Source: a virus
Taxonomy: Duplodnaviria; Heunggongvirae; Uroviricota; Caudoviricetes
Strand: one strand, 5' to 3'
IMG/VR virus record: IMGVR_UViG_2617270939_000002
DNA: 34,039 nt
Shown here: positions 6,015 to 24,931 of the stretch, piece by piece
Layout: every line of letters begins with the position of its first letter
Position numbering within the stretch: position 1 is the first letter of the stretch
Notes under the pieces: model-generated
Databases searched by the model: none
Told to the model about the DNA's origin: nothing
The model's input: the letters and a program-made list of their open reading frames with translations, nothing else
Position numbers and translations under genes: made by a program

Positions 6015-6030
6015 CGTCGTGATGACCATT

Positions 6031-6092: not shown

Positions 6093-6108
6093 TTCAGCAG
6101 GTCGCATG

Positions 6109-7323: not shown

Positions 7324-7396
7324 AATTTTACCGTGATGTCTCTTACAGAGATTGTCGGTTCAGCATACAAAAAAGGCTCCATAAGGAGCCTGAAAT

Positions 7397-7612: not shown

Positions 7613-7808
7613 TAACTGCCGTGGGGCCTTTAGGTCCCTGTTCAACACTAAATTCAACTTCCTGATTCTCATTCAACGTCTTGAAATCATTACTCTGGAT
7701 AGCAGAGAAGTGAACAAACACATCTTTACTACCATCTTTTGGAGTGATAAAACCAAAACCTTTTTCAGGATTAAACCATTTAACTAAACCAGTCATTTTA
7801 TTAGACAT
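7596..7808 (-). CDS. Cold-shock protein, CspA family (CspB-like)
   Basis: [53 protein letters not shown]... ; long AT-rich upstream leader typical of csp genes. Confidence 0.9.
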
Positions 7809-8240
7809 AAACATTACCTTTATTGAGTAAGCCCTTGGGCAGAATGGTCCGAAAAAAAATTATCAGAGAGAAAAGCTAACAAGGAAATCTCAACAGGAAC
7901 AAGGAATAAAATTATTACAGCGACTGCTTCAGATAAATTCGTTACAAACCAGACATTCATTAACGCATGATTAACCAGACATAGCAAGGTTTAGTTTTGT
8001 AAGTAAATCTCAGTGGGTTTTGATCTTAAAAATTAATTTAAATAGCTTAAATCGAAAATTATGTCATGCTGCGTAAGACCTTTATCTATCACCCTAAGTT
8101 GTCAGGGATTTTGACTCAAGGAAGAGTCGTATTTCCTTCATAGTAAAAATTCACAAATTTATCCACGAAAACCGTCAACATCTTAATTTATAGAGCTATT
8201 ATTTTTCCTCTACGGTTCATTGTTAGTATTTTTACGGACT

Positions 8241-8345
8241 CATAAATCCGCTCACATGTCATTCCTGCTCGGTAGTTTTCATCAGCGCGTTCAGCATGGT
8301 ATCGAGCTTCTTCTGCCAGGCTTCCTGGCATGTCTACGAGCATTG
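8241..8345 (-). pseudogene. Orphan 3' fragment duplicated from the gene at 9196..9669 (about 105 bp, about 80 percent identical to 9237..9341)
   Basis: Direct sequence comparison of the two stretches (ctcaca(t/c)gtcattcctgc...atcgagcttcttctgc...). Confidence 0.55.
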
Positions 8346-8380
8346 TGGTGTCATGGCGGATGGAAAGTTATGTTGATTCG

Positions 8381-8584
8381 TTAGTTATCGAGCTGTAGAA
8401 CGCTATGCTCTAGCGACTCGGAATAGGCAATCAGCCCGGTGTACTCAGGGATAACCTCGCCATCATCCGCTTCGAACTCAGGGATTGTTCCGGTAGTGAT
8501 GGTATATTGTGGCTGGCCATCTTCTTTTGCGAAGGCAGCCAGGTCTTCAATCTGCTTAGCTGTAAGAACTACTGTAATGCTCAT
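8381..8584 (-). CDS. Hypothetical acidic small protein (67 aa)
   Basis: ORF only; SD very close to ATG. Confidence 0.35.
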   Translation of the reverse strand: MSITVVLTAKQIEDLAAFAKEDGQPQYTITTGTIPEFEADDGEVIPEYTGLIAYSESLEHSVLQLDN

Positions 8585-8968
8585 TCCTCAGTTGTTAAAA
8601 AGCCCCGCTATTGCGAGGCTTGATTGATTATGGCTAACGACTACATCGTAACGGTTATAAAAGAAGCTATTAGCCAACATGTGGTGTATGGTTGTTAACC
8701 GCCCACCAGGACAATCAACATGTCGATACTCAAAGATATCAAGATGCGTACTTTACGCCATGTGAAAAGTACTTGTCCTCATTGCTCCCGCCAGTCAAAG
8801 CACAGTCTGTCGAGAATAAAAAACAATATAACGTTAATTTGCCCCTTCTGTGGAAACATCTATCTTCCATCGGAAAGCAAACCAATAAAGTAACTGATTG
8901 ACTACCAAATAAAACTCATACTCTCAGAATGTGGCAAAGCAGACATAACCTTTTATTGTTGTTCTCAT

Positions 8969-9199
8969 TTAAGAGAATGTAACACCCAGAGTGGAGAGGT
9001 TTTTTTTCTTCTCCACAATACGGCGATCAAGTTCAGCCACTGCATGCGGGCGTATGGCATCAAGAAAGGCGTTATCCTGATAGGTAGACTGGATTGTCAC
9101 ACCAAGTCCGGCACCACTTTCCAGTATGCTTTTCTGAAGTTGTAGTTCTTTTATATCGTTATTGAGGTAATACGCTTCACTTAGGTTTTCTGCGTTCAT
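8969..9199 (-). CDS. Hypothetical phage protein (76 aa)
   Basis: ATGA start/stop overlap with upstream gene suggests translational coupling. Confidence 0.5.
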
Positions 9200-9669
9200 C
9201 TTCTAACCCTGTTGTTGTTTGACTGCCTCACTGAGTCGTAAATGCGCTCACACGTCATTCCTGCCCGGTAGCTTTCGTCAGATCGCTCAGCATAATATCG
9301 AGCTTCTTCTGCAAGGCGTCCGAGCATGTCGGCGAGCACTGCGGCGTCGGCTCCGGCTGTTTTGCTTCTGACGGCAGTGGCAAGATCTGCGGTGTGCTTT
9401 GCGGCGTCCAGGCGAGTGGCAAGCTTTGTTGCTTCGGTACGCAGCTGGTTAACAGTGGCAGACAGGCCAGCAGCAGTGGCAGCGGATTTACCGACAATAA
9501 TTGCCCAGTCACTCAGGCTTAACCCTGCAATTCTGTCGGCCAACATCCAGGACACCTCTTTTGCTGTTTTAGCTGTTTCGGCATATGCCTTCGCTGATAC
9601 ACCGCAGCCGGTCAGCGTGGTTCCTGTTCCATATGAAAGTCTGCTGTAAATGGTGCTCATTCTGGTCAT
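9196..9669 (-). CDS. Hypothetical phage protein (157 aa)
   Basis: ATG at 9669 preceded by GGAGGTGAGG; Ala/Thr-rich helical protein. Confidence 0.6.
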
Positions 9670-9912
9670 AGCCTCACCTCCGATTATTCGGATGGCGCTG
9701 TGTGTTTGAAAAGGGTCAGGCTTCACGGGCTGGATTTATCAACAAAGCACGTAGCGGATGATTCCCGTGAGCCTGAAATAGAAAAGGCCACGCAAATGCG
9801 CAGCCTGTAACCAGAAATCAATATTGTCTTTACATCAATTTTTCTTAAGGTTAAATTCTTCTGACAAGTTGATGAAAGACAACTTGAATATTAGCTATTT
9901 GTTCTCTGTTAT

Positions 9913-9939
9913 GCCCGCAACCCAATGCGGGCTTTTTTT
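9913..9939 (+). terminator. Rho-independent terminator (gcccgca-acccaa-tgcgggc followed by T7)
   Basis: Perfect 7-bp GC stem followed by ttttttt on plus strand in an otherwise gene-free interval. Confidence 0.55.
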
Positions 9940-10113
9940 CGCCCTGCTAAAAGTTCCACCGTTGTGAGCCTTTTTGCTATGCAATAATGGATGCGTGGTG
10001 CCGGGTGTCTCCCGGTGATCCTTTGGCTGACAACCCATGCCTCACGAACATTTCACAACGGGATATAGAAAAGGCCATGCATTTGCATAGCCCTGAAAGA
10101 TGTTTATGCTTTA

Positions 10114-10611
10114 TTAATTCGCTGGAATATCTGGCATGGCGCGATCCATAGAAGAGCTAATTAACGCCTTAATAGCGTTGCATACCTGATAAAATCCACC
10201 CAGCTGAGATGAGACAGAAAAACGGGAGACGTCGTCTCCTGAGCCTACTTCAGCATAAAATGATGAGTTCTCATACCAGAGTGAGATGCTTACGCCCTGC
10301 CTGTAGCCACCTGTTAGCGGAGAATCATCAAGAGTGGTTGCAATCACGAAATTCAAGTGGTAACGGCTGTCCATATTGAGTTGGGGGATTAAGACAGGAA
10401 AGAACTTCCCCTCCTCCTCCCAAATACCAATGTCCACATAAGGCCATCTTGTTCCGTCAGAACCAGTCCACTCACGAGATGTAAGATCAAGAGAACCTGA
10501 ATACTCTCGTAGTAGTTCGCTCGCCTTCTCCTGAAGTTTATCCTGTAACTTCCATTGCGCCTCGACCAGTTTAGTGCGTTTTTCTTTCAGATCCTTAAAT
10601 GTTAATTCCAT
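10114..10611 (-). CDS. Hypothetical phage protein (alternative start 10647)
   Basis: ORF; ATG at 10611 with GGAG upstream. Confidence 0.5.
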   Translation of the reverse strand: MELTFKDLKEKRTKLVEAQWKLQDKLQEKASELLREYSGSLDLTSREWTGSDGTRWPYVDIGIWEEEGKFFPVLIPQLNMDSRYHLNFVIATTLDDSPLTGGYRQGVSISLWYENSSFYAEVGSGDDVSRFSVSSQLGGFYQVCNAIKALISSSMDRAMPDIPAN

Positions 10612-10836
10612 GCCACTCTCCAGACAACTTTTGAAAGGAATCTGCATAGTAACTCACCCTGAAAGCACATGGTTATATTTCACTTACACTGAGTGCGAAA
10701 AGCAAAAACCCCGCCGAATGGCAGGGTTCATAATCAGTTTCATTTGGATGCACGTATCCATGATTAGAAGCATACACGACAACTTCGGACAAAATCAAGC
10801 CCTGCGTCACGAAAATGCTAAATATCACGCGTATCG

Positions 10837-11037
10837 TCACACAAACTGGTCATCACCTGGAAGCTGCATTGTGATTTTCACAATGGAGGTCTTAAAGCGC
10901 TGTTTTAGCTTAGTGAACTGTGAGGCCCAATCCATGCCCATGCCGTCAATGATCGGCTTCATTGGGGTATACGGCTCACCATTGCGATTCACAACATAGA
11001 GTGCATTTCCGTGGAACGGGACGGTAATTGTATTCAT
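10837..11037 (-). pseudogene. Antirepressor N-terminal domain fragment (P22 AR N-term/Ant-like), truncated after about 66 aa
   Basis: MNTITVPFHGNALYVVNRNGEPYTPMKPIIDGMGMDWASQFTKLKQRF resembles phage antirepressor N-terminal domains; much shorter than typical. Confidence 0.45.
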
Positions 11038-11318
11038 AGCGTTTTGCCTTACTTTGAGATGAACCTTTGCCGCACAGGAGATCAGCCCGTCGAGGCTCGC
11101 CAGCACTAACTGACTCCTCAACGGCTCATTCCAAAAGGTTGGGTTCGACGTGATTGAATGCGCTGCGGTGCGCGGTGAAATGCAGATACAAAAAAGCCCC
11201 GGTATTAAACCGAGGCTTATAATTCTTTCTCTTTTTCAGAGAATGCGGATTAAAGAACGTGCTTCATTGCTGGTTTCATCACAGCTTGGCACATATTTAC
11301 TACTTTCATTTCTCATTT

Positions 11319-11540
11319 TCAATTTATTTTTTTTGCACAGTTAGCCTGCACTGATTTATTGTGCACCAATATGTCCCGCTTCGTCTGCTTATCCAGCACG
11401 GCAATATCGTGTTCAGTGAGGTAGATAATGTCCACCCAGTCACAGGCTGTGTCCGTTAATTCAGGTTTTGCGGGTAAAGTTTTCGCGCAACTCACGGTCA
11501 ACATCGTCATCAGGAAGATGATTAACAGTTTGCTGTACAT
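11319..11540 (-). CDS. Lipoprotein, putative o-spanin (Rz1-like), overlapping 3' end of upstream gene in another frame
   Basis: Signal peptide MYSKLLIIFLMTMLTVSC with Cys lipobox; overlap architecture typical of spanin pairs; position downstream of endolysin. Confidence 0.45.
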   Translation of the reverse strand: MYSKLLIIFLMTMLTVSCAKTLPAKPELTDTACDWVDIIYLTEHDIAVLDKQTKRDILVHNKSVQANCAKKIN

Positions 11541-11730
11541 CCCTGGCTCCTTTTGTTGTCTCTACCCGGCGTTCAGCAACAGCTTCAGTAGCTGTTGCAC
11601 GTTCTTCAGTGCGCTGCTGATCGGCTTTGGCTTCCGCTTTGCTGGTGCCGCGTGAATGACCAATGCCAAAAGCACCAGCGATAGCTGCCATTATCAGGGC
11701 AGCAATACCGACGATTGTTTCTAATCCCAT
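11461..11730 (-). CDS. Small N-terminally membrane-anchored charged protein, putative i-spanin (Rz-like, short)
   Basis: MGLETIVGIAALIMAAIAGAFGIG TM segment then charged coil; GAGGT RBS; immediately after endolysin. Confidence 0.45.
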   Translation of the reverse strand: MGLETIVGIAALIMAAIAGAFGIGHSRGTSKAEAKADQQRTEERATATEAVAERRVETTKGARDVQQTVNHLPDDDVDRELRENFTRKT

Positions 11731-11737
11731 AGTGACC

Positions 11738-12367
11738 TCACACCAGCACAGACTTCGCCAGGTTAAACAGCGCGCGGCGTTTATCCAGCCCGTTACGTCC
11801 GCCATTGATAAGCAGCGTGACGCGCTCCACATCGCCTGAATGGAGCAGGCATCCGTGCGAGACGTAGAACCATGCGGCGGAGCGCGCAGCGTATTCATCT
11901 CGTTCCAGTAGTTCTGGATACGAAACCAGATCCAGTTTGAGAGCCTGGCCGCAACTGCGATAGTTGCTAAGCCCGGTGATTTGCTTAAGGCCTCGGCCGC
12001 GATATTTCCAGCCATCACCAGCAACCTGGTTGCCCAGGTTCTTTTTGCCCCACTCACCGCCGTAAACCAGATTGGCTATCGCTTTCTGATTTGCCGGTTG
12101 CGTTGCCGTTCTGCCGAGTGCGGCGGCCTGCTGCGCAGTAATGCGATGCTTGCCGAACGTAGGTACCAGGTTTTCTGCCGCATAGTTCAGGTTTTCCACC
12201 AGCCGGGTGAAACCGCCGGACTCATGGCCCATCTGCGCGATAAACATGGCCTGATCGAGCGGCGCGGTTATGCCGAATTCCTTCACTGCAGCATCGATAT
12301 GCGAAAACCAGCGCGAAGCGAGCCCGGCGCTAATGCCAGCCGCCTTTTGAAATTGTGATTGGTTCAC
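11738..12367 (-). CDS. Phage endolysin, glycoside hydrolase family 19 (chitinase-like lysozyme); GTG start (alternative ATG at 12415)
   Basis: MFIAQMGHESGGFTRLVENLNYAAE...GRGLKQITGLSNY motifs; GTGA overlap with upstream gene stop. Confidence 0.8.
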   Translation of the reverse strand: MNQSQFQKAAGISAGLASRWFSHIDAAVKEFGITAPLDQAMFIAQMGHESGGFTRLVENLNYAAENLVPTFGKHRITAQQAAALGRTATQPANQKAIANLVYGGEWGKKNLGNQVAGDGWKYRGRGLKQITGLSNYRSCGQALKLDLVSYPELLERDEYAARSAAWFYVSHGCLLHSGDVERVTLLINGGRNGLDKRRALFNLAKSVLV

Positions 12368-12645
12368 GTTGTGCTTTCCCCTGCTATTCTTGCGATGTTG
12401 CCACGTGCTCGCCATACAGCTATGCAGACAACAAGGTTGACGACCAACTCTCCGTAGTCGACCTGCACGTAATCACCATGCCAGATGCGGAAAGCGGTAA
12501 ACGCTGGAGCGAGGATCAGCCCATAGGCCAGAAACTCCATCAGACGGCGGCGCCGTAAGCTCCGCTTCCTGAAGAACATCAGGCGTATGGTGATGAGGAT
12601 GCATGCAACAGCGTTAATGTTCAGGATCAGTGTTTGCCACGTCAT
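12364..12645 (-). CDS. Small two-TM membrane protein in lysis cassette (holin partner/antiholin candidate)
   Basis: Hydrophobic segments plus RKRSLRRRR basic patch; ATGA coupling to the upstream holin-like gene. Confidence 0.5.
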   Translation of the reverse strand: MTWQTLILNINAVACILITIRLMFFRKRSLRRRRLMEFLAYGLILAPAFTAFRIWHGDYVQVDYGELVVNLVVCIAVWRARGNIARIAGESTT

Positions 12646-13046
12646 TCTTCCCCCTTCAATCCGGGTAAGTCTCCTGTCTTCGACCGTTTGAGGATGCGAG
12701 CCAGGATGGTGACAGAAACCGATGAAGCCAGCAGGGCACCCATAGCTGGAGATACCTTCACGGAAACTGGAGGAGAAAGGTGACTTAATGCCGCATTGAT
12801 TAGCGCAGCGATGATTTCAGATGCTGTTCCGGCGCAGTAGACTCCACCAATGAATGAGATGAGCGCGAACAGTATCTGCTTCCAGATTTTGTGGTCTTCA
12901 CTGCTCAGGACATAAAGAGCAGCCCCGGCAAGTGAGCAAAGCATTACAGCGGGTGTCGCTTCTGGAAACATCGTCGCGAAGGTGATTCCGGTAGTGCCGG
13001 CGGCCACGCCTGCCGTTACCGTTGCAGATATCGGTTCTGCGGACAT
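12642..13046 (-). CDS. Putative holin (134 aa, multi-TM with charged C-terminal tail)
   Basis: ATG at 13046 with GAGGGGG RBS; TM-rich with C-terminal KRSKTGDLPGLKGEE; first large gene of lysis cassette. Confidence 0.55.
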   Translation of the reverse strand: MSAEPISATVTAGVAAGTTGITFATMFPEATPAVMLCSLAGAALYVLSSEDHKIWKQILFALISFIGGVYCAGTASEIIAALINAALSHLSPPVSVKVSPAMGALLASSVSVTILARILKRSKTGDLPGLKGEE

Positions 13047-13156
13047 TTTGCCCCCTCTTATTGCTGTTGATCCTCTCAGAAGGTTGAGGGGAAACAAAAA
13101 AGGCCACCGTGAGGTGGCCTATATATGATTGAAATTTTTGATTTGGTAAGGCTTGA

Positions 13157-13351
13157 TCAGACCGGCAATGCCTTCGGCTTGCCCATGTGATATGTAACAA
13201 GGCTGCTTTTGCTGCCATCTTCCCAGACTGTAGAGCTCTCGGTGATCTTCAAAATCACCCAGCCTTTAGAAAGGCCCAAATTGACTTGCTCCACATCCTC
13301 TACCGTCCGTACTTCCTGAATTTTACTCAACAAGTTTTCATCTGCGCTCAT
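13157..13351 (-). CDS. Hypothetical small protein (64 aa), first ORF downstream of tR'-like terminator
   Basis: ATG at 13351 with GAGGG RBS. Confidence 0.4.
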   Translation of the reverse strand: MSADENLLSKIQEVRTVEDVEQVNLGLSKGWVILKITESSTVWEDGSKSSLVTYHMGKPKALPV

Positions 13352-13413
13352 CAACTGACCCTCAGTTAAAAAACACAACATAACAAACGCATTGAAGAAA
13401 AACCTTGCTGGAA

Positions 13414-13442
13414 ATAAAAAAACCCGCGCTGAGGCGGGTTTG
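13414..13442 (-). terminator. Rho-independent terminator on minus strand upstream of lysis genes (lambda tR'-like position)
   Basis: Minus-strand hairpin aaacccgc-ctcagc-gcgggttt followed by TTTTTTTATTT. Confidence 0.5.
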
Positions 13443-13829
13443 ATGTCGTGTAGGCGTAATATCCCACGATGGAAAGCATACAGGACATTTTTATGCAAAG
13501 TCAACACTAACGTGCAAAAAAGTGTCGCTACCGTAACCCGTACCAGACCCGCCACACATTCGCCACCAGACACATTAGCCAGGGCGTAAACCTTTTCTGG
13601 CTTGCCGGGCAGATGGGGCATAAAGGGCCGGAAATGCTGTTCCGCAATTACGGTAAATACCTGGCTGAATACGACGGGAAAACCGCCATTTCAGCAGCTC
13701 TGTAGCGTCGTGAGTATTTCAAAATGTTGGACGGAATCAGGACGTTAGAGGGACCACGATATGCACGTAAAATGCACTTGAGGCCTTTCAAAAAAGACAA
13801 AACATTAATATTCAATAGGTTAAGCATTA

Positions 13830-13864
13830 TTCGGACACGGGTTCAACTCCCGCCAGCTCCACCA
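13830..13864 (+). other. 3'-terminal fragment of tmRNA (ssrA)-like sequence ending in CCA; att core, not an intact RNA gene
   Basis: TTCGGACACGGGTTCAACTCCCGCCAGCTCCACCA matches the E. coli ssrA 3' end as I recall it (one difference); upstream sequence does not match the ssrA body. Confidence 0.7.
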
Positions 13865-14030: not shown

Positions 14031-15260
14031 ATGGCCAAAATCGCTAAGAAGCTCACTGACACTGAAATCAAAAGCACCAAACCTGCCGAAAAAGAGGTTA
14101 ACCTTTTTGACGGCGATGGTTTGCTGTTGCGAATCGCTCCCCTGGCGAAGGGAGGGAAGAAAAATTGGTATTTCAGATATGCAGTGCCTGTGACCAAAAA
14201 GCGAACTAAGGTGAGCTTAGGAACCTATCCTCACCTTACACTTGCGAAGGCACGAGCTTTACGTGATGAATACTTGTCGTTGCTTACAAATGGTATAGAC
14301 CCCCAAGTTCATAACAACCAAAAAGCCAATGCACTGAAAGATGCCACGGAACATACATTTCAAGCAGTAGCCAAGAAGTGGCTTGATGAGAAAGTCAAAA
14401 CGTCAGGCATCTCCCAAGATCATGCTAACGACATCTGGCGAAGCCTAGAGAGAAATATCTTTTCCACATTGGGTGATACCCCAATTAAGGAGATTCGCCC
14501 TAAAATGCTTAAACAGCATTTAGAACCCATAGAAAAACGAGGTGTCCTTGAAACACTTCGCCGCATCATATCCCGCCTGAATGAAATTTTCCGCTATGCA
14601 GCAACAGAAGAACTCATAGAATTCAACCCGGCAGACAACCTGGGGCAACGGTTCAGCAAGCCAAAAAAACAGAATATGCCAGCATTACCCCCTTCCGAAC
14701 TCCCTCGCTTCTTGGTTGCTCTAAACAATGCTTCTATCCGTTTGGAAACAAGGCTACTGATTGAGTGGCAACTTCTCACATGGGTTCGCCCAGGTGAAGC
14801 TGTTCGCACAAGATGGTCAGATATTGATATTGAAACTGGCATGTGGAACATCCCGGCGGAGTTTATGAAAATGAAGAAGCCTCACAAAGTTCCACTGAGC
14901 AAAGAAGCTTTGCGAGTTTTGGATTTAATGAAAGTCATCAGCGGGCATAGAGAGTGGGTGTTCCCCAGTATCAAAGCTCCACTCAATCACATGCATGAAC
15001 AAACAGCTAATGCGGCCATAATCCGTATGGGTTTCGGAGGTGAGCTTGTAGCTCACGGTATGCGATCCATTGCTAGAACGGCTGCTGAGGAGTCTGGCAA
15101 GTTTAGGACTGATGTCTTAGAAGCCGCCCTTGCCCACTCGAAGAAAGATGAAATAATTGCAGCCTACAATCGTGCAGAGTATCTCACTGAACGGGTGGTT
15201 CTCATGCAATGGTGGAGTGACTATGTTTCGTCTCAAAAATGCAAAGTTATTGCCGCATAA
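14031..15260 (+). CDS. Tyrosine integrase, P4 family (IntA-like), 409 aa
   Basis: MAKIAKKLTDTEIKSTKPAEKEVNLFDGDGLLL...WYFRY... N-terminus and C-terminal HGMRS...LAHS...Y catalytic region; adjacent to ssrA-type att. Confidence 0.9.
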   Translation: MAKIAKKLTDTEIKSTKPAEKEVNLFDGDGLLLRIAPLAKGGKKNWYFRYAVPVTKKRTKVSLGTYPHLTLAKARALRDEYLSLLTNGIDPQVHNNQKANALKDATEHTFQAVAKKWLDEKVKTSGISQDHANDIWRSLERNIFSTLGDTPIKEIRPKMLKQHLEPIEKRGVLETLRRIISRLNEIFRYAATEELIEFNPADNLGQRFSKPKKQNMPALPPSELPRFLVALNNASIRLETRLLIEWQLLTWVRPGEAVRTRWSDIDIETGMWNIPAEFMKMKKPHKVPLSKEALRVLDLMKVISGHREWVFPSIKAPLNHMHEQTANAAIIRMGFGGELVAHGMRSIARTAAEESGKFRTDVLEAALAHSKKDEIIAAYNRAEYLTERVVLMQWWSDYVSSQKCKVIAA

Positions 15261-15542
15261 CTCTCCCATGATGGATTAACTATCTTGATTTAGTTAAAGA
15301 ATTAATAATCACACCATTAACCTATGTGGACTAAGCATAGCCATTTACAAATGGGGACATTGAGTCCACATAACGAAAGCTGTCGGTCATATCAGCTAAA
15401 TAATTCACATCTCTTCTCGATTATCATACACCTCGAAGATCTACCAAATTCGCTCTAATCAATGATAAAACAGTTGAATTCGGTTAAAATTTGATCAATT
15501 TTATCCTCTACATTGTATTGAATCATCCATGAGGTTTCGTGC

Positions 15543-17099
15543 ATGGCTAGCGAAAATGACAAAAATCATAGAGTTAGGGTCGCGCAGTACTTGAGGATGT
15601 CTACCGACCATCAGCAATATTCTTTACATAATCAGTCCGAATATATCAAAGATTATGCTGAAAAGAACAATATGGAAATCGCTTATACCTACGATGATGC
15701 AGGTAAGAGCGGAGTCAGTATCGTAGGCAGGCATTCTTTGCAGCAGTTACTTAGCGATGTAGAACAAAAGAAAATAGATATACAGGCTGTATTATTTTAT
15801 GATGTGAGCCGTTTTGGTCGTTTTCAAAATAGTGATGAAGCGGCATATTATTCCTTTCTATTTGAGAGAAATGGTGTAGATCTTATATATTGTTCCGAAC
15901 CTATACCCACTAAAGATTTCCCTTTAGAGTCCTCTGTTATACTGAATATAAAAAGATCTAGTGCTGCATATCACAGCAGGAATTTATCTGAAAAGGTATT
16001 TATAGGGCAAGTAAATTTAATAAAGCTTGGTTATCATCAAGGCGGTATGGCTGGTTATGGGCTGAGACGTCTTTTAGTAGACGAAAATGGCATAGCTAAA
16101 GAAATATTGAGTTTCCGCAAAAGAAAGAGTATTCAAACAGATAGGGTAATATTAATTCCGGGACCAAAAAATGAAATAAAAATTGTAAATAGAATATATG
16201 ATCTCTTTATAGATAATAACGTCCCAGAATTCATTATTGCTGAGAGATTAAATGAACAGAACATACCTGCAGAAAATGGAACATTATGGACTCGTGCAAA
16301 AATACATCAAATTTTGACAAATGAAAAATATATTGGAAACAACATATATAACAAAACCTCATCTAAATTAAAAAGTAGGCTTGTAAAAAACCCCAAACAT
16401 GAATGGGTTAGATGTGACAAGGCATATAAACCTATTATTTCAAAGAAAAAATACAATAAAGCTCAAGAAATAATTCAGCTCCGATCCATTCATTTGACTA
16501 ATGAAGATCTATTAGAAAAACTAAAACAAAAATTAGAATCTAATGGAAAACTATCAGGCTTTATCATTGATGAAGATGATACAGGCCCTTCATCTTCTGT
16601 TTATAGAACCCGATTTGGTGGTCTTTTAAGAGCATATACTTTGATTGGTTATAAGCCAGAACATGATTACAGCTATCTCAAAATAAATGAAGCACTAAGA
16701 TCATTTCACTCAGAGATAATTGAGGATTTTAAGGGTGAAATTTTAAAAAGTAACTGTCATATAGACGAGTATAAATATGCCCCAATGCTTTACATCAATG
16801 ATGAGTTTTTAATTTCCGTCCTTGTTACTAAATGCATACATATGAAATCAGGTAAACTTAGATGGAAAGTCCGGTTTGATAACTCACAGAAAGCAGACAT
16901 AACAATTGTTATACGAATGAATTCACAAAATATTTCACCTCTTGATTTTTATATCATACCAAAGATTGAAAACGAATATAATAAAATGTGCATGACGGAA
17001 ACAAACAACATTCGATTAGATCTCTATAGATTTGATAATCTTGATAAACTTCTACAAATTATTACTCGCATGAAAGTGAGGGAACTATATGCTGCCTGA
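15543..17099 (+). CDS. Large serine recombinase (resolvase/invertase catalytic domain plus recombinase and zinc-ribbon domains)
   Basis: VAQYLRMSTDHQ catalytic serine motif near N-terminus; 518 aa; AT-rich. Confidence 0.85.
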   Translation: MASENDKNHRVRVAQYLRMSTDHQQYSLHNQSEYIKDYAEKNNMEIAYTYDDAGKSGVSIVGRHSLQQLLSDVEQKKIDIQAVLFYDVSRFGRFQNSDEAAYYSFLFERNGVDLIYCSEPIPTKDFPLESSVILNIKRSSAAYHSRNLSEKVFIGQVNLIKLGYHQGGMAGYGLRRLLVDENGIAKEILSFRKRKSIQTDRVILIPGPKNEIKIVNRIYDLFIDNNVPEFIIAERLNEQNIPAENGTLWTRAKIHQILTNEKYIGNNIYNKTSSKLKSRLVKNPKHEWVRCDKAYKPIISKKKYNKAQEIIQLRSIHLTNEDLLEKLKQKLESNGKLSGFIIDEDDTGPSSSVYRTRFGGLLRAYTLIGYKPEHDYSYLKINEALRSFHSEIIEDFKGEILKSNCHIDEYKYAPMLYINDEFLISVLVTKCIHMKSGKLRWKVRFDNSQKADITIVIRMNSQNISPLDFYIIPKIENEYNKMCMTETNNIRLDLYRFDNLDKLLQIITRMKVRELYAA

Positions 17100-17985
17100 A
17101 AAAAATGAATTCCCAATAATTCAAATTGAGATTGCAAAAATAAAATTTCTTAACCCACGAACAAGAAATAAGTTAGTGCATGAAGAAATAAAGGAAAGCA
17201 TAAAAAAAAGAGGATTAAGCAAGCCTATAAGCGTAAGAGCTATTGATGAAGGCGATTTCAAATATGCTTTAATTTGTGGTCAAGGGAGAATAGAGGCTCT
17301 CGTTGCATTAGGTGAAACTATTATTCCAGCAATTATAAGAGATGTATCAGAAGAAGATGCTTACGTTATGAGTTTAGTTGAAAACATTGCAAGGAGAAGA
17401 CCACGTTCTAATGAGTTATTACAGGTGATTAAAGACATGAAAATCAGAGGACTTTCAGACTCCGAAATAAGTGAGATTACTGGATATTCATCGAACTGGG
17501 TGAGCAGTATTAATATGCTACTTGATAAGGGAGAGCATAAACTTCTCTCAGCAGTCGAACGGGGTAATTTGCCTCTGTATCTCGCAGTGCAATTTGCAAG
17601 ATGTGAAACTGAGGAAGCACAAGATATTCTTACCGAAGCATATGATAAAAAATTAATAAAAAGTCGGGACATTATAAAGATAAAACACATTCTAAATCAA
17701 AGAACAGTTGGGAATAAAGGTGCAAAAGCAGCCGGATTTTATTATCACAAACCATCAAAAAGGATGACTGCAGAGGAGTTGATTGAGCTTTATGAAAATA
17801 GTATCGCTGAACATAAATCTGTTTATAACAACTCAAAATTCATAAAAACCAACCTACTAATAGTAAATGAGATTTTTAACATCATAATGATGAATAAAAG
17901 CTTTCAACATATACTTGAACAAGAGAATCTTTCAGAACTACCATCTCAGATATTAACCCCAATAAACAAAGAGGTATTAAAATGA
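17089..17985 (+). CDS. ParB-like N-terminal domain protein with HTH (paralog 1)
   Basis: ISVRAIDEGDFKYALICGQGRIEALVALGETIIPAIIRDVSEEDAYVMSLVENIARR matches ParB/Spo0J N-domain pattern; 11-nt overlap with recombinase. Confidence 0.7.
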   Translation: MLPEKNEFPIIQIEIAKIKFLNPRTRNKLVHEEIKESIKKRGLSKPISVRAIDEGDFKYALICGQGRIEALVALGETIIPAIIRDVSEEDAYVMSLVENIARRRPRSNELLQVIKDMKIRGLSDSEISEITGYSSNWVSSINMLLDKGEHKLLSAVERGNLPLYLAVQFARCETEEAQDILTEAYDKKLIKSRDIIKIKHILNQRTVGNKGAKAAGFYYHKPSKRMTAEELIELYENSIAEHKSVYNNSKFIKTNLLIVNEIFNIIMMNKSFQHILEQENLSELPSQILTPINKEVLK

Positions 17986-18878
17986 TTCAGATACGTTTTG
18001 GCGATAATTTTATTTACCTGGAAACTAATAAGTTAATTCCATCTAAGGAATTATTAGAAAACGTAAAGCGAAGCCATAAATATCATCAAATAGTTACCTC
18101 TATCGAAAGCTTAGGTATTATTGAACCAATAATAGTATTCTATGACAAAGATAAAGATGTCACTAAGATACTTGATGGCCATTTAAGGGTTGAGGCTTTA
18201 AAAGACTTAGGTATAGAAAAAGCTCCATGTATACTTTCGAGCATAGATGATGCTTTCACTCCTAACAAACAAGTGAATCATATAAATGTAGTTGAAGAAC
18301 ATAGAATGATAATTAAGTCTCTGGCAAAAGTATCAATTGAAAAACTTAGTGCTGCTTTGGGCATATCTGTTGATGCCATAAAAGATAAAGCGAATGTGAT
18401 GAACGGCATAGATCCAAGTGTAATTGCGAAACTTTCTGATAAACCTATACCTAAGGCTACATTTGACGTTTTGAGGAAAATGAAGCCAATTCGCCAAATT
18501 GAAGCAGTCGGTACAATGATTAATTTTGATAATTATAGTAAAAAATTTGCAATGAGCATCTTGGATGCAACACCGGCATCGATGATAGTAAATAAAGGGA
18601 AAAACACTCCCTATAAAAAGGATATAAAAAAAACCATACTTCGTCTGGAACAAGAAATGGCAACAACTTCGGAAGAAACGAAAAAGCTTCAAACCGAGTA
18701 TGGTTCAGATATGTTGAAATTCGTTATAATCCAGTCATATATTAATAAATTACTTGGCAATTCTAAAGTTCTTCATTGGTTCTTAGAAAACGAGGTTGAT
18801 TATCTTAATGAGTTAAAAAGAATTTCTAGAATAAATTCTTTGGATGATAAGACTCTTACTGAAAACAGCAAGTCATAG
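17982..18878 (+). CDS. ParB-like N-terminal domain protein with HTH (paralog 2)
   Basis: IIEPIIVFYDKDKDVTKILDGHLRVEALKDLGIEKAPCIL...; ATGA overlap with paralog 1. Confidence 0.65.
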   Translation: MIQIRFGDNFIYLETNKLIPSKELLENVKRSHKYHQIVTSIESLGIIEPIIVFYDKDKDVTKILDGHLRVEALKDLGIEKAPCILSSIDDAFTPNKQVNHINVVEEHRMIIKSLAKVSIEKLSAALGISVDAIKDKANVMNGIDPSVIAKLSDKPIPKATFDVLRKMKPIRQIEAVGTMINFDNYSKKFAMSILDATPASMIVNKGKNTPYKKDIKKTILRLEQEMATTSEETKKLQTEYGSDMLKFVIIQSYINKLLGNSKVLHWFLENEVDYLNELKRISRINSLDDKTLTENSKS

Positions 18879-19532
18879 TCATGTTTTATATAGCCTAAAT
18901 AAACCAAGAAGTATACTTACACAACGACCTTCACGCCGAAGAAGCTGTCAGATACGCCAGCAACCAAAGCATTACGTTTAAGTGTCAGTCATTGATACGA
19001 AGGGATAACTGCGTATCAGCAGCCGGACATTGAGTCGAATAAAGGCTGGTAGAGAGGGACAGTTCTGTGTCACCGGGAGATTCGTCAGAAACATCAGCGG
19101 CAGAACAGATGAACCAGCAATTGGTAGTGCACAGAAAACTCTCCAGTATTTAATTATTCAACTTAACACTAAAAAAAATCACATATTTAATATCATAATT
19201 TTTCTTTGGTCTACGTATGCGAGAGTTATTGTGGCTTTAACCGGGTATTAGGAGTCGTTTCAGATAAAAGATGTTCTTCGATTCGACTGGACTTGGTAAT
19301 AGCAATAAGTAATCGTTAATATTGAAGGACGAAAGGCTACTTCAAAACAAAGTAACCTTTCCAATATTCCCATCTATGGGACAAGTGGTACATTAACTGC
19401 ACATAGTGCAGGATACATATGACATAAAACTTTTTATTTATGGCATACATTATAAATAACTTGTATTTTATGAATGTCAATAGGTTCTTGTTTAATACTT
19501 TTAAAATAATTAATTGATTGTTTTTATTATAG

Positions 19533-19552
19533 CTTCGCTTGTACAAGCGAAG
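19533..19552. repeat. Perfect 9-bp inverted repeat around a central TA dinucleotide (CTTCGCTTG-TA-CAAGCGAAG)
   Basis: Read directly; the 2-nt spacer argues for a DNA-level protein-binding or crossover site rather than an RNA hairpin. Confidence 0.6.
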
Positions 19553-19587
19553 ATCCTATTGTTCTTGAATGAATAATGCCAATTATA

Positions 19588-19631
19588 AGAGAAGCAAGGG
19601 CTAACTCTGCGAAGCCGCTGCGCTTGCTTCT
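19588..19631. other. GC-rich stem-loop (10-bp perfect stem gagaagcaag/cttgcttctc, 24-nt structured loop) inside an AT-rich ORF-free gap
   Basis: Read directly; followed on plus strand by a C/T-rich tract. Confidence 0.5.
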
Positions 19632-20612
19632 CCGGTTTCCCCTTGCTTTTCTTCCCTTCGGTTAGAAAAGAAAAACCTGGTCTTTCTCTTTCAATGTCTG
19701 CACATTTACTACAACAGATTAGACAATCGCAACTATTTATTTTATATGGAAAACTAGTGCTTAAATTGCAGCTCTCATTTTTATCAATCATTTTGCATAA
19801 GATAAATTTAAGTTTATATACCAAGGCATCCCGTTAGTTTTTACACGTAGGTAAACTAATAGTCAAAATCGAACTTTGAATTGTAGATTCTTTTAATTTA
19901 ACTCTATCCATCCGGTTAGAGGTAAAGGGAGGTTCATTTCAAGATATCATTGAACACAGTTCCAGATTAATATTATCAAAGAATTGAAAAAGATAATTAT
20001 TATTGCAATCCGTTAATGAGTCCACTTCAATTTTCCGTTCTTCTTACAGCGTTCTGAACAGTTAAACATATGATAGCTATTTAAAACCTTCGGTAATCTT
20101 ATCCAATACGGACTTGTCTGGTTTGATAATTACCAGAATCACACTATGCTCTTCAGTCTAATTTGTCAGTGATAAGGAGATCCGACCTATCGAACTTGCG
20201 TCATTTCCTAAATTTAGTGATTATAAATGTGGTTATCTATGGTCTTGTTGTGAAGATGTAGGCTGGAATTATCATGACGAACTGCAGCCTACATAAGCCG
20301 ACAGTACGGCTTTGATCGAATCATTAACTCTTTTATCATCTCAGGAACTGTGCAGACATTCCAGTTCAATTTTATAACGTTCAGTAAAAATTTAAAAAGG
20401 TGACAGCCCATGATCTCAATTGCAGACAATCAACCGTCTTTGATGATCATGGGTATATAAGTTTAACAAGATGTCTTCATCTCATGTGATTAAAATATAT
20501 AACAACACTAATTTAAAAATCGATTCTTAACTCTTCCAAAATATCACCCTTTATATTTCATTAAATTAATATCATAACTACACATACTAATTAGATAGTG
20601 TGTTAATTAAAT

Positions 20613-22739
20613 TCATCTAACTGACTCAATGATCTTTTGTTCTATAACTCGCCCACCTTGCTTTCCAGACAAAGGACCAATTAGTACTTTAAAGTCGGCA
20701 TAGTCATCTGCCTCAGGCCTATGCTCTATAATAACAATTGCATTGAATAATTTAGATTTTTGATATATAAAATTCAGCACCTTCGAAGCCGTCTCAGAAT
20801 CAAGTCCAGCGACAGGTTCATCAATAAACAATATTTTGTTTGTTTTTCTGGACTTAGATAGTATTTCACATAATTTTATTCTACGCATTTCACCACCTGA
20901 CAGGGACTGCGTTTTTCTATTAAGTTTCAAATGTGATATTCCAAGATAATGGATAGTTTCAAGAATAGTATTAATCTTAGTGTTATTAAAAAAAGAGCTT
21001 AACTCTTTCAACTCAGTATCATATACATCTATTATATTCATACCATTAATCTGAGACTTTACTTCATCTATATTGTGGTCAAACAGTTTACCCTCACATT
21101 TATGACATGATATGTAGATATCCTTTTCAAAACCCCTTTCATATTTTATCACGCCCTTACCTTCACAAACTTTACATCCACCAAGTTTGTTTGGAAGGAA
21201 ATACTCTATATCTAATTTTGTTATATCGGAGAAAAATTCTGCAATTAATTTATTCAAATCCGTGATAGTTGCGACAGTAGAACGTCCTGTATATGATGAC
21301 AATTTTTGGCTTATATAAATCGAATCGGTAAGACTACAAATAGCTTTAGCTAAAGATGATTTCCCCGATCCGGAGATTCCAGAAAAAACAGTAACACACT
21401 CTTTAGGGATACGTATATTTTGATTAATGATGTTATTTTTATTAAGCCCTTCAAAATAATAGTAATCAGATATATTATTTTTGGGATTGAGGTTCCTTTG
21501 CGGCTGAATTTTTTCTTTTTCACAAATTTCCCCACCAGAAGAACCAGCGTATTTACCAACATGGATTTGCTGATCAGCAAGATCTATGAAATACTGCGAG
21601 TGCTCTACTAAAATAACTGTGTTTTTTTCTGATAATTTTTTTAGCTTTTGAAAGATAACTTCAAAATCGACAGGGTTAATTTGGGATGATATTTCATCGA
21701 TAACAATCAGAATACCTGTTGTATTAGATGTTAAAAGCCTGCTGAAAATAAGTTTTTGTATTTCCCCCCCAGAAAGACTGGGAATTGAACGAGACAAATT
21801 TAAATATCCCAATCCCATATTATTTATTGAGGACAACACTCTAATTAATACTGAGTCACCTATAGTTTTTTTCAGGGTATTACATAATTCAGATATAGGA
21901 GATAGTAAAAATTCATCAAATGTAAATCCTAAAACATCAAGTTGGGCTGTTTCTTGGTTAATTCTGCTTCCATTACAAAATGAGCAATTTTCTTCCTTTT
22001 TATACTTTGAATTGTTTTGGCTCCGTCCTATATTCGAATTAGCAAAAGACATTACGCCTTTATAAAAAGCTCTTCTTTGCTTCGTTTTTCCTTTGTGTTT
22101 AAATCTAAAAGATAATTTCTCAGCGCTTTCTCCATATAGTATTAGGTTTTTCTTTTCAAGTGATAGTGAATCAAAAGTATCATCTACTTTTATATTATTT
22201 TTATCACAATAGACCATAAGTAATTGGTGATAATAATCAGATAACTCACCAGTCCGCCAACATAAAAATGGTTTTTGATCTAGTCTACATTTTTCATTAA
22301 TTAATTCAGATTCATCCACACTAACTATCTCGCCAAGGCCTAAGCAGTGTGGACATTCATTTCTATAATTGTTTATTTTTAATTTATCATAATTAGGTAC
22401 TGCTACGTTTCTTTTGATTTTTAAAGATGACAAAGCTTGAGCTATATTCAGATATGAATATATAGTTGAACGAGGGTTGTTATTTGTGTTTCTTTGTGGT
22501 ATCGCAACAGCGGGAATTAACCCACTGAAATTTGCAACTTTATAATCACTTTCATTCAAATAACCGTTTTCTACAGCATCAAACTCATCTTTGCATAATT
22601 GATAAATTGATGAAAATGCTAAAGAACTTTTTCCTGCGCCCGAACGGCCATAAATAGCGGTTATTGTATTAAATGGTATAGTAACATCTAAATTTTTTAA
22701 ATTATGGGTGGCTATTCCCTCAAAAATGATCTTATTCAT
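20613..22739 (-). CDS. UvrA-like double-ABC ATPase with zinc-finger insertions (708 aa)
   Basis: Two Walker A motifs (GRSGAGKSS, GISGSGKSS), two ABC signatures (LSGGEIQKL, LSGGEMRRI), several CxxC pairs; AGAGGA RBS; ATG overlaps upstream stop as ATGAATAA. Confidence 0.85.
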   Translation of the reverse strand: MNKIIFEGIATHNLKNLDVTIPFNTITAIYGRSGAGKSSLAFSSIYQLCKDEFDAVENGYLNESDYKVANFSGLIPAVAIPQRNTNNNPRSTIYSYLNIAQALSSLKIKRNVAVPNYDKLKINNYRNECPHCLGLGEIVSVDESELINEKCRLDQKPFLCWRTGELSDYYHQLLMVYCDKNNIKVDDTFDSLSLEKKNLILYGESAEKLSFRFKHKGKTKQRRAFYKGVMSFANSNIGRSQNNSKYKKEENCSFCNGSRINQETAQLDVLGFTFDEFLLSPISELCNTLKKTIGDSVLIRVLSSINNMGLGYLNLSRSIPSLSGGEIQKLIFSRLLTSNTTGILIVIDEISSQINPVDFEVIFQKLKKLSEKNTVILVEHSQYFIDLADQQIHVGKYAGSSGGEICEKEKIQPQRNLNPKNNISDYYYFEGLNKNNIINQNIRIPKECVTVFSGISGSGKSSLAKAICSLTDSIYISQKLSSYTGRSTVATITDLNKLIAEFFSDITKLDIEYFLPNKLGGCKVCEGKGVIKYERGFEKDIYISCHKCEGKLFDHNIDEVKSQINGMNIIDVYDTELKELSSFFNNTKINTILETIHYLGISHLKLNRKTQSLSGGEMRRIKLCEILSKSRKTNKILFIDEPVAGLDSETASKVLNFIYQKSKLFNAIVIIEHRPEADDYADFKVLIGPLSGKQGGRVIEQKIIESVR

Positions 22740-23814
22740 ACTTTCCTCTACACCAATCACATTCAGGATCACGTGGAACATCTTGGACGTTAAAAGATAA
22801 ACTTCTAAGACTAAATTCGACTCTTTTATTTTCTTGTTGCAAGTGATCTACTTTCCCGGCAAGTAATTTTATAGCGTCCAAGCTTGCAAGGCTTGCAGCC
22901 AGACCTGATAGTGGTGAAAATGAACCTAATTTTCGTTTTACCCGGTGCAATTTCTTCACATTAACAAGGTCTTTGCTATTTATTTTTCCTAAAAATAGGT
23001 TAAAACAATTAAAGCATGCTGACTTAAATGGAATAATTGTCTGACCGATAAGGGTTTGATGAAGATTATATCCCCCGCCAACTATATGTGGGATATTATG
23101 AATCATACTAAAGAGGGCGATTATTTTACTGGTGTAATCCACATTAGGTTCATCAGCGCAGTTTATTATCAAATCTATATCAGAGGGTAGAATATTTCTT
23201 TTAAAAAAATCATCATCGATAATGTCATTGATAATGTCAATCTTAATATCTGGAGATATCTTTTTCAAAGAGTTGAGTAACGCTATATTTTTATCAGAGT
23301 TAATTTCATCCTCGAAATAAAACTGACGATGTAAATTACTTATATCTACATTATCGTGATCTACAAATATTATCGAACCAACATTGCAATGAGCAAGATA
23401 CGTTGCCACATTACTACCGACTGCTCCAATACCTACAATCATTACTTTTGATTTTTTAAGATTAATTATACATTCTAAAACCTCACTGGTGGTATGACAG
23501 TAGTCTTCAAATGTATTGATCATTCTATATTGTTCAGTGACAAGCTCTGCAGGGTATTGGCAATCTTGATCGATAATTATATTGTTTTCATTCAAAAACA
23601 AAGCTAATTTTTCAAGTTGTTGAATATCGATTCCTGAATAATTTGCTACAATTTCTTGAAGAGAAGTTTGCCCATCAAACATCTTTAAGAGTTCAACTAT
23701 ATTTGGAAAGTTGATTTTTATTTTTATACTTTCTCTAATATTGGATTTAAAAAACTCTACAGTATCATCATTTACGACGATACCAATACTTTGTCGCAGT
23801 CTAAAATTATTCAT
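22732..23814 (-). CDS. E1-like adenylyltransferase (ThiF/MoeB/MccB family) with PqqD-like N-terminal peptide-binding domain, paralog B (alternative GTG start at 23832)
   Basis: KVMIVGIGAVGSNVATYLAHCNVGSIIFVDHDNVDISNLHRQ nucleotide-binding motif; N-terminal LLKMFDGQTSLQEIV; C-terminal CFNC...CDWC. Confidence 0.8.
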   Translation of the reverse strand: MNNFRLRQSIGIVVNDDTVEFFKSNIRESIKIKINFPNIVELLKMFDGQTSLQEIVANYSGIDIQQLEKLALFLNENNIIIDQDCQYPAELVTEQYRMINTFEDYCHTTSEVLECIINLKKSKVMIVGIGAVGSNVATYLAHCNVGSIIFVDHDNVDISNLHRQFYFEDEINSDKNIALLNSLKKISPDIKIDIINDIIDDDFFKRNILPSDIDLIINCADEPNVDYTSKIIALFSMIHNIPHIVGGGYNLHQTLIGQTIIPFKSACFNCFNLFLGKINSKDLVNVKKLHRVKRKLGSFSPLSGLAASLASLDAIKLLAGKVDHLQQENKRVEFSLRSLSFNVQDVPRDPECDWCRGKYE

Positions 23815-24931
23815 TACAGATTTTGCATCCACTTTGTTTTACCAATTCAAAATTAGTCATTTTGCCTTCGTTTGGAAGGTATTCATACCGACTATTTACA
23901 TATGAAAATGCTGAATCATCCAACAGGAAGTGAATTAATTTCATGCAACTTAGATTAGCTGAAAAACCATTCATCATTGCTAATCCACCAGGCCCTCCTG
24001 GAATATAATTATCATAGACAGATTTTGAAAGGTCCAGTTGAGGATTATTGACTATACTATATACAGGCTTCCATCCTTTTAATGCCTTTGAAAACGTATT
24101 TTGGGCACAATCTATACAGGGTGTATGTGGAGGGAATATTAATTCTCCTGAACTCATTAAGTGGGCGTCAAATCCACCTGATACATACAGCGGAATAGCT
24201 CTTGCTTGTGCATATCTACCAAGTTTTAAAGAAGTATGACCTATATAAGGCTCATCACAAGTATTAATAATCAGATCTGTATCATCAGAAATGATAGAGG
24301 ATAGATTAGTAGTAGGTATAAGTTTTTCAAAATGTTTTGTTATTATTACTCGACTATCGATCCAACTCAAAAATTCTGACAGGACATCTACCTTTGGTTT
24401 TCCGATTTTCTTATAGTTATAATAACAATGCCTTGCTGCATTTGACTTTGAAAGGGACTTATAATCAACCAAAACTATATTTTTAACACCTGCGCGGACA
24501 AGTATTTCTATAATTTTGGCTCCTACAGCTCCACACCCAAATAAAACAACCTTTTTGCTCTCCAAGATATGTTGAGTTTCTACACCAGGTCGTTCAAGGA
24601 CAAAATCGTCCCAAAATGTAATTTGTCGTGAAAAACGAGGTTCAATATCGCAAATGTTATTTACATCATAAATAAAATGTTGATTTAGTAAAAAAGCAAT
24701 TAGTTTATCGACATCTTTTGAGCGTAGGGACCCCATCTCAGTAACTATATCATTTATAGTTTTTATACCATCAAGGCTGGCAATAAATCGAGCGACATTT
24801 TTATTAGTTTTTATTTCTAATCTATCACGCGTTGTCATCACATGAAATGTGAGTTTGACATTATCAGTATTATCTTCATTCGATATAAAAATATCCACAG
24901 TTTCTTTTATTTTATATTTTTTGGAGTCCAT
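23807..24931 (-). CDS. E1-like adenylyltransferase (ThiF/MoeB/MccB family) with PqqD-like N-terminal peptide-binding domain, paralog A
   Basis: KKVVLFGCGAVGAKIIEILVRAGVKNIVLVDYK motif; N-terminal FIASLDGIKTINDIVTEMG; C-terminal CIDC...CKIC. Confidence 0.8.
   Translation of the reverse strand: MDSKKYKIKETVDIFISNEDNTDNVKLTFHVMTTRDRLEIKTNKNVARFIASLDGIKTINDIVTEMGSLRSKDVDKLIAFLLNQHFIYDVNNICDIEPRFSRQITFWDDFVLERPGVETQHILESKKVVLFGCGAVGAKIIEILVRAGVKNIVLVDYKSLSKSNAARHCYYNYKKIGKPKVDVLSEFLSWIDSRVIITKHFEKLIPTTNLSSIISDDTDLIINTCDEPYIGHTSLKLGRYAQARAIPLYVSGGFDAHLMSSGELIFPPHTPCIDCAQNTFSKALKGWKPVYSIVNNPQLDLSKSVYDNYIPGGPGGLAMMNGFSANLSCMKLIHFLLDDSAFSYVNSRYEYLPNEGKMTNFELVKQSGCKICNE

Follow-up and report, generated by a model that had tools for sequence, protein, structure and literature searches.

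Large serine recombinases (LSRs) are major tools of genome engineering, and their control by accessory proteins is partly understood. They rely on unrelated accessory proteins: XisF on XisH and XisI, SprA on SprB, and phiC31 Int on gp3. ParB-type CTP (cytidine triphosphate) switches serve chromosome and plasmid segregation, nucleoid occlusion, and transcription control; to our knowledge, a ParB-type pair has not been described as the partner of any recombinase. We analyzed a 34,039-nt stretch of DNA from the IMG/VR virus record IMGVR_UViG_2617270939_000002 (hereafter, the window), in which an LSR gene is followed by two genes for ParB-type proteins, ParB1 and ParB2. The window is Escherichia coli DNA, and the three genes (the trio) lie inside an integrative mobilizable island at the transfer-messenger RNA (tmRNA) gene ssrA. 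Their open reading frames share the plus strand at 15543-17099, 17089-17985, and 17982-18878 and encode proteins of 518, 298, and 298 amino acids (aa). The start of ParB1 overlaps the LSR stop by 11 nt, and that of ParB2 overlaps the ParB1 stop by 4 nt (ATGA). A base-composition scan gave a GC fraction of 0.31-0.35 over ~15.5-25 kb and of 0.45-0.55 in both flanks. A preliminary description of this DNA, made from the sequence alone, had placed three coupled or overlapping genes in an AT-rich block at exactly these positions. The trio is a single operon-level cassette, composed of an intact LSR and two intact ParB-type proteins that are translationally coupled and unaccompanied by ParA.

The closest described recombinases are the LSRs with accessory proteins (TP901-1, phiC31, SprA with SprB, TnpX, CcrA/CcrB, and XisF with XisH/XisI). 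The trio LSR shares with them the resolvase serine nucleophile and the recombinase domain, and it likewise resides on mobile DNA, often at element edges. It matches the Pfam families Resolvase (PF00239, E = 7.7e-22) and Recombinase (PF07508, E = 6e-22, residues ~210-312). The nucleophile, Ser20, lies in the motif YLRMSTDHQ, and D87, R90, and R93 are further residues of the catalytic domain; among 114 distinct homologues, S20, R18, D87, R90, and R93 are near-invariant (109-113 sequences). The best sequence matches in the PDB are TP901-1 integrase and TnpX for the catalytic domain and SPbeta SprA/YokA for the recombinase domain; the best NCBIfam match, CcrB, falls far under its cut-off. The trio LSR differs from the described systems in that neither a zinc ribbon nor a coiled coil was detected, in that its C-terminal 200 residues match no family, and in that its partners are two ParB-type proteins. 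Residues 313-518 gave no family match at E ≤ 0.01, and the sole hint within the last 200 residues is a weak "homing endonuclease associated repeat" (E = 0.04). The structure model of the LSR is confident only to about residue 315 and unreliable beyond about residue 345; the alignment available for modeling the C-terminal region was shallow (six diverse sequences), because searches gave mostly near-identical E. coli proteins.

ParB1 matches ParB_N (E = 1.5e-13, 51 bits) and RepB (32.9 bits; cut-off 30) in Pfam and passes the cut-off of the NCBIfam model TIGR00180 (ParB/RepB/Spo0J) with 60 bits. It contains box I, a GQGR (GxxR) box at residues 64-67 (GQGRIEA), ENIARR at 98-103, a helix-turn-helix (HTH), and a RepB-type C-terminal part. 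Residues G64, G66, R67, E98, N99, and R102 are kept in 116-117 of 117 homologues, and the nearest solved relatives are Spo0J (E = 2e-12), Myxococcus xanthus ParB, Noc, and KorB. Because the GxxR and ENxxR pocket residues are near-invariant, ParB1 appears to be a canonical CTP-switch ParB. ParB2 is a divergent ParB. It matches RepB (E = 2.2e-24, 87 bits), scores barely below the ParB_N cut-off (25.8 against 26.3 bits), lies below the TIGR00180 cut-off, and matches PHROG 31451 over its full length. Of the CTP-binding boxes it retains only the GxxR-type box, as DGHLR at 65-69; the ENxxR box is replaced by N95 and E106-H107, and an HTH region and a long C-terminal helix (~212-259) follow. This altered pocket is equally conserved: D65, G66, N95, S40, E48, R171, and Q172 are kept in all 129 homologues, R69 in 128, and E106 in 116.

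An AlphaFold model of ParB2, built on 83 homologues (mean predicted local distance difference test score, 79), gave as best Foldseek matches M. xanthus ParB bound to CTPgammaS, Noc, Spo0J, and KorB, with ~200 aligned columns and E-values of 1e-9 to 1e-5. These matches to clamp-type ParBs span the N domain and the HTH, whereas a serine kinase and sulfiredoxin aligned over only ~85 residues with much weaker E-values. The two ParBs are distant paralogues, 30% identical across 63 residues (E = 0.001). Profile and fold searches agree that both downstream proteins have a ParB-type N domain and an HTH, and the preliminary call of an LSR followed by two ParB-like paralogues is borne out by the Pfam profiles and the ParB2 fold matches. 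One suggestion of that description, that the two proteins form a ParB-nuclease pair, is disfavored: both have an N domain, an HTH, and C-terminal helices, with RepB-type central and C-terminal parts, unlike the stand-alone nuclease or sulfiredoxin-type form.

The ParB pair is best compared with orphan ParB clamps, such as KorB of RK2 (which acts with KorA), Noc, and VirB. ParB1 shares with these the GxxR and ENxxR boxes and the HTH, ParB2 shares the fold, and the pair likewise occurs on mobile elements without ParA. The trio differs from them in having tandem paralogues that are translationally coupled to a recombinase and in a ParB2 whose ENxxR box is replaced by other invariant residues. Unlike KorB, it has no KorA-like partner; the small HTH gene found upstream of it in alpha- and betaproteobacteria is related to no Pfam family. 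A 2025 survey of the ParB-CTPase fold found many orphan ParBs on mobile elements, and the terms "recombinase," "resolvase," and "integrase" are absent from its main text (PMC12704722). Our literature searches (accessions, serine recombinase with ParB, and ssrA islands) found no paper on the trio. Its parts come from known families, and we found no published description of their combination. A study of the Paracoccus virome described a cluster of 11 prophage serine recombinases without an identifiable attachment (att) site (PMC6536676); these may belong to the trio LSR family.

The trio occurs in 661 of 5,426 complete E. coli genomes (~12%), at 663 places that are all chromosomal. A tblastn search of plasmids with ParB2 returned 103 records at 33-38% identity. 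On four distant plasmids (Agrobacterium pAtC58, a Piscinibacter plasmid, a 30-kb Paraburkholderia plasmid, and an Aminobacter conjugative plasmid), ParB2 again occupies third place in the operon, with products of ~520, 298, and 298 aa, starts and stops that overlap as in E. coli, and identities to the E. coli proteins of 42-46% (LSR), 31-38% (ParB1), and 33-38% (ParB2). Scanning one genome per species confirmed the trio in at least 570 stretches from other species; those listed are mainly from alpha-, beta-, and gammaproteobacteria, plus one metagenome-assembled genome of Opitutaceae. Across other species, plasmids, and prophage edges, protein identity is 30-60%. Among the 80 other-species loci kept for the synteny count, all three genes have the same order and strand in 78, the exceptions being one solitary ParB2 and one locus cut by a contig end. 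In the 52 IMG/VR loci, the trio is complete and ordered wherever the contig end permits. ParB2 also matched 112 representatives of 50%-identity clusters at E ≤ 1e-30 and 497 at E ≤ 1e-10. A search for this synteny in other genomes had been proposed in the preliminary description; the trio recurs coupled and in order across species, and the arrangement is not due to chance. A 7.5-kb bacteriophage contig with the trio (MT837206) is not circular and added no context.

In about 50 alpha- and betaproteobacterial loci (including L003, L005, L006, L094, and L100), a small, divergently transcribed gene lies directly upstream of the LSR gene, and most alphaproteobacterial copies are in this way four-gene units. 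The HTH-like product, ~115-135 aa, carries the N-terminal motif "..TGASERTVKNW..GPSG.HL", and some copies add a C-terminal DeoR-type HTH. It matches no Pfam family and only weakly a PHROG of unknown function (23106). The 282-bp spacer upstream of the E. coli LSR gene is without this small gene.

The trio behaves as a discrete cassette and has spread horizontally in one piece, within accessory regions of mobile elements. In E. coli strain C 236-04A, whose island integrase is 79% identical, the integrase stop is followed directly by homologues of window 19323-19483 and 19591-19673; because this island joins the integrase stop straight to post-block sequence, the block at 15261-19322 is an insertion-deletion (indel) block. 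Its ends in E. coli are located only approximately, from trio-less islands with 79-86% identity. In another strain (integrase 86% identical), the trio slot is filled by genes for an AAA protein and a phospholipase D (PLD) protein, and related trio-less islands carry similar cargo (L105 and L165). The left end of the block is a noncoding leader (15261-15542, plus strand) that runs from the tyrosine integrase stop to the LSR start and is missing in trio-less ssrA islands. Its right end, from comparison with relatives, is a noncoding tail (18879-19322) with an IS3-family remnant; in close relatives, similarity is already lost 48 nt past the ParB2 stop. Sharp boundaries are seen in Rhodobacteraceae, where 87-95% DNA identity between different genera is limited to ~3.56 kb, and the flanks are unrelated. 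The shared stretch starts at the 5′ end of the LSR gene and extends 213-220 nt beyond the stop of ParB2. In other clades, identity ends 2-16 nt past the ParB2 stop. The suggestion that the trio is the integration module of a nested element is compatible with the indel block and the sharp Rhodobacteraceae bounds; neither att sites nor flanking repeats were found.

The cassette often adjoins host genes at the edge of an element, as after the type IV secretion genes of an integrative and conjugative element (ICE; L162) and at the end of a Raoultella mobilizable island (L102). In prophage predictions it occupies the accessory end by the tail genes, beside a GmrSD, type I restriction-modification (RM), HipA, or UvrD-like gene. 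Across ~60 loci, the upstream neighbors include tyrosine integrases (7) and ParE toxins (7), and the downstream neighbors include helicases, restriction subunits, PLD, WYL, RES, Fic, and MobA. On the 30-kb Paraburkholderia plasmid, the four-gene unit lies among Abi, toxin-antitoxin, and restriction genes. On the Piscinibacter plasmid (NZ_CP136338.1; L004:1-5087), the LSR gene begins 93 bp past tniQ of a tniA-tniB-tniQ set.

From these observations we tentatively favor the reading that the trio is a self-contained recombination module in which a nucleoside triphosphate (NTP)-switch complex of ParB1 and ParB2 targets or gates the LSR. We infer that the three proteins act jointly, that the ParBs bind nucleotide and DNA, and that recombination is the output. 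The LSR would be the catalytic engine, cutting and rejoining DNA site-specifically. ParB1 would bring an intact CTP-switch pocket and an HTH, and ParB2 a divergent NTP pocket, an HTH, and the long C-terminal helix. Both would be made in a fixed ratio with the LSR and would most likely assemble on DNA as a mixed complex or clamp, which would pick out or mark the DNA substrate of the LSR and gate the reaction. The net result would be integration and excision or rearrangement, of the cassette or of its carrier; mobilizable islands, ICEs, plasmids, and prophages carry the cassette as cargo within their variable regions. We favor this reading because of the coupling and synteny, the near-invariant catalytic and pocket residues, the clamp architecture, the cassette behavior, the position at element edges, the extra divergent gene, and the precedent of other LSRs, for which the directionality factors SprB and gp3, and XisH/XisI, fill a comparable role. 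A purely functional analogy is offered by IstB (IS21), TnsC (Tn7), and MuB, nucleotide-dependent switches that bind DNA, are encoded together with a recombinase, and choose its target; those are AAA+ ATPases with DDE transposases, whereas the trio pairs a predicted ParB-type CTPase fold with a serine recombinase and is unrelated to them in sequence and fold. A more specific version, in which a heteromeric ParB-type CTP/NTP switch is the targeting or licensing subunit of the LSR, either in a compact mobile element whose ParB pair chooses or immunizes target DNA or in a conflict system that breaks or captures incoming plasmid or phage DNA, is speculative and seems to us rather doubtful.

Several results weigh against a self-contained recombination module. 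No family-wide palindrome was found in the 450 bp upstream of the LSR gene in ~75 loci, and no flanking direct or inverted repeats above chance were found in ~70 loci when the longest words common to the 700-bp flanks were compared with shuffled controls. The copies in the 661 E. coli genomes (663 places) show no inversion polymorphism. No pair of empty and filled sites was found at high identity, as integrases at least 91% identical all carry the trio and trio-less ones are only 79-86% identical. Sharp boundaries are also typical of defense operons and therefore do not prove self-mobility. Many carriers (E. coli, Salmonella, Dickeya, and Buttiauxella) have a tyrosine integrase, so that the LSR is not needed for their integration. 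For the zinc ribbon, there was no PF13408 match and one invariant cysteine, although the low-confidence C-terminal model could miss a very divergent version; because no zinc-ribbon or coiled-coil domain was detected, the LSR may work unlike phage LSR integrases.

The similarity of both ParBs to ParB/RepB partition profiles, and their RefSeq labels as partition proteins, would fit a partition system without ParA, or with ParA in trans, for an excised island or plasmid. The likeness to ParABS and RepABC extends to ParB1 passing the TIGR00180 cut-off and having both CTP boxes and an HTH. The trio differs from those systems in lacking ParA or RepA and an activating peptide, in that scans found no repeated parS-like sites, and in being chromosomal in all 663 E. 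coli copies. The window contains no ParA gene. A tblastn search with Soj over ±8 kb detected no ParA in 103 of 105 loci, and in the other two it lay 7 kb away; no ParA family was among the Pfam families present in at least two loci in a census of the two nearest open reading frames on each side in ~60 loci, and gene-called contexts with precomputed Pfam assignments agree on its absence. Neither ParB1 nor ParB2 has a ParA-activating N-terminal peptide or an Arg/Lys-Gly-Leu-type motif, as judged from the sequences and the ParB2 model; the ParB_N fold begins at about residue 10 in both, leaving no room for one. No repeated palindrome was found near the trio genes. We know of no chromosomal ParA in E. 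coli that the trio could borrow, and on the 30-kb Paraburkholderia plasmid, which encodes a Rep, a ParA, and a tyrosine recombinase separately, the ParA locus lies 20 kb from the cassette. A partition role is in our view effectively excluded. The preliminary description had likewise held that this is not a standard partition system, a view that an adjacent ParA in related elements or a failure of the ParB calls would have overturned; ParA is not adjacent in related loci, and the calls survive both profile and fold searches. A second set of roles, in which the ParBs are KorB- or VirB-like regulators or anti-silencers and the LSR resolves multimers or cointegrates of an excised or replicating carrier, appears unlikely. 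It draws on ParB1 being as similar to KorB and Noc as to segregation ParBs, on orphan ParB-CTPase proteins being common on mobile elements and in some cases regulators (PMC12704722), and on the AT-rich E. coli block, which makes H-NS silencing plausible. The place of the Piscinibacter LSR gene also fits, since Tn5053-type transposons carry a resolvase at the position after tniQ. Against such roles, trio-less relatives in the same island family hold similar cargo, the trio is equally conserved in high-GC hosts beside unrelated genes, the cargo stands on either strand relative to it, TniQ is not among the neighbor families found in at least two of ~60 loci, the Paraburkholderia plasmid already has a tyrosine recombinase, and chromosomal remnants with nothing left to regulate retain all three genes intact. 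The earlier proposal of anti-silencing of AT-rich cargo is accordingly poorly supported, given the presence of the trio in high-GC alpha- and betaproteobacteria, the similar cargo without it, and the varying cargo orientation.

The main alternative, which we hold possible, if on the unlikely side, is an anti-phage, anti-plasmid, or inter-element conflict system, or else an addiction module. In a conflict system, the task of the ParB pair would be to load on foreign DNA or to sense it, and the LSR would be the breaking or rearranging effector. The genomic company of the trio speaks for it. In E. coli it occupies the first slot of the variable, defense-rich cargo region of its island, at a tmRNA locus that is hotspot #9 of a survey of E. 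coli defense islands (PMC10121019). Related islands carry AAA and PLD, type I RM, Kiwa, NACHT, or UvrA-like/ThiF genes in this region; in the window it holds a UvrA-like ATPase and two ThiF-like genes, in E24377A type I RM and Kiwa, and in NCTC9100 NACHT and RelA/SpoT. Neighbors across the ~60 loci include ParE toxins, AbiEii, Fic, RES, WYL, PLD, type I and III restriction enzymes, and helicases, and the prophage copies and the Paraburkholderia plasmid place the cassette amid genes of the same kinds. The trio also stays intact in island remnants truncated by insertion sequences (ISs). In BL21(DE3) (L159; NC_012971.2 2622524-2628467), the order is ssrA, integrase, LSR, ParB1, ParB2, with the three trio genes intact, IS1A directly after them, and the rest of the island gone; the remnant in NT1F34 keeps the integrase and the intact trio. 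On the other side, the LSR had no match in PADLOC-DB 2.0, and the ParBs matched only ParB-containing methyltransferase models, weakly and in part (E = 0.007 and 2e-07). Guilt by association cannot tell defense genes from selfish or maintenance genes in the same hotspots, and our literature searches found no such system. We know of no defense system with a serine recombinase as its effector.

The strictly conserved LSR-ParB operon, which occurs in hundreds of species, hints at a mechanism that ties an NTP-gated DNA clamp to site-specific recombination. If a ParB switch does license the LSR, this would be an undescribed recombination role for the ParB-CTPase fold; alternatively, the trio could be an unrecognized cargo system of defense islands. 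In either case, the evidence contradicts the current annotation of the ParB genes as partition proteins. The question is testable in standard strains, because BL21(DE3) has an intact copy next to ssrA and K-12 is without the trio.

Candidate DNA sites around the trio were also considered. Conservation of an imperfect palindrome at 15323-15372 (24+2+24, 50 bp) does not extend past close enterobacterial copies. At 15482-15496, the leader has a half-palindrome, GGTTAAAATTTGATC, that could be an operator. The operator candidate GGTTAAAWTTTAACC has 4 matches in the window where 1.8 are expected, which is no enrichment. Transposon-like terminal repeats were rejected, as only two of ~70 loci exceed the shuffled controls, with unrelated 14-mers. 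The hairpin at the right end of the Rhodobacteraceae block was ruled out as an att site, because its arms stay paired through G-U pairs and compensatory changes; we read it as a probable RNA terminator. A circularly permuted element was likewise ruled out, the three upstream variants being homologous promoter and N-terminal regions or carrying the small divergent gene. The 20-bp palindrome at 19533-19552, put forward in the preliminary description as a substrate on which to test the recombinase, is a poor candidate, since its position falls beyond the trio block, in a stretch of island backbone that also occurs, in degenerate form, in trio-less islands.

That backbone (19323-19677) is common to trio-less islands and ends at the cargo junction. 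It contains a hairpin (~19331-19361) that stands directly 3′ of the integrase in trio-less islands, the palindrome, and a segment of ~85 bp at 19591-19673 (L105:12001-12083) with internal dyad symmetry (AGAAGCAAGGG ... CCCTTGCTTTTCT). The segment ends exactly at the cargo start, retains 96% conservation in an ssrA island without the trio, and could mark the cargo-exchange site of the island family. In most genomes the left arm ends at one recurrent junction, 19672-19677, where the variable cargo starts.

The island itself comprises a P4-type tyrosine integrase (14031-15260, plus strand; PRK09692-type; the RefSeq start is 14031), the trio, variable cargo, and a conserved right arm, which contains ankyrin-repeat genes and a pair of NikA-like and relaxase genes (28308-29953). 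None of the complete E. coli genomes in the collection covers at least 80% of 13800-34039. Upstream of the integrase, only the last 25 nt of ssrA are present (13840-13864), and ARAGORN and Rfam find no whole tmRNA gene; because only the 3′ end of ssrA precedes the integrase, two elements seem to stand in tandem at ssrA. Window 1-13864 is a different element from the trio island and contains a full-length match to the cspA thermoregulator RNA (RF01766, 141 bits) at 7537-7953 on the minus strand.

The cargo in the window (20613-24931, minus strand) comprises a gene for a UvrA-like double ABC ATPase of 722 aa, which has a UvrA DNA-binding domain and matches PADLOC mad3 (E = 2.8e-44), and, after it, two overlapping ThiF/E1-like genes (366 and 374 aa); together they are a candidate defense-type module. 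In E. coli ST540 (L167; NZ_CP007265.1), the integrase and 210 nt of leader are joined, without an IS, to a truncated fadB beside pepQ-trkH; the junction corresponds to window 15470, 72 nt upstream of the LSR start, and several genes in the record are frameshifted, so that misassembly, and not a true rearrangement, may explain it. The relaxase gene (28694-29953) contains ~15 tandem GTGCCA hexamers at 29501-29614, which predict a Val-Pro type repeat whose length could vary. At 32201-32298, close to the right end of the conserved arm, two 49-bp copies that are 82% identical stand in tandem.

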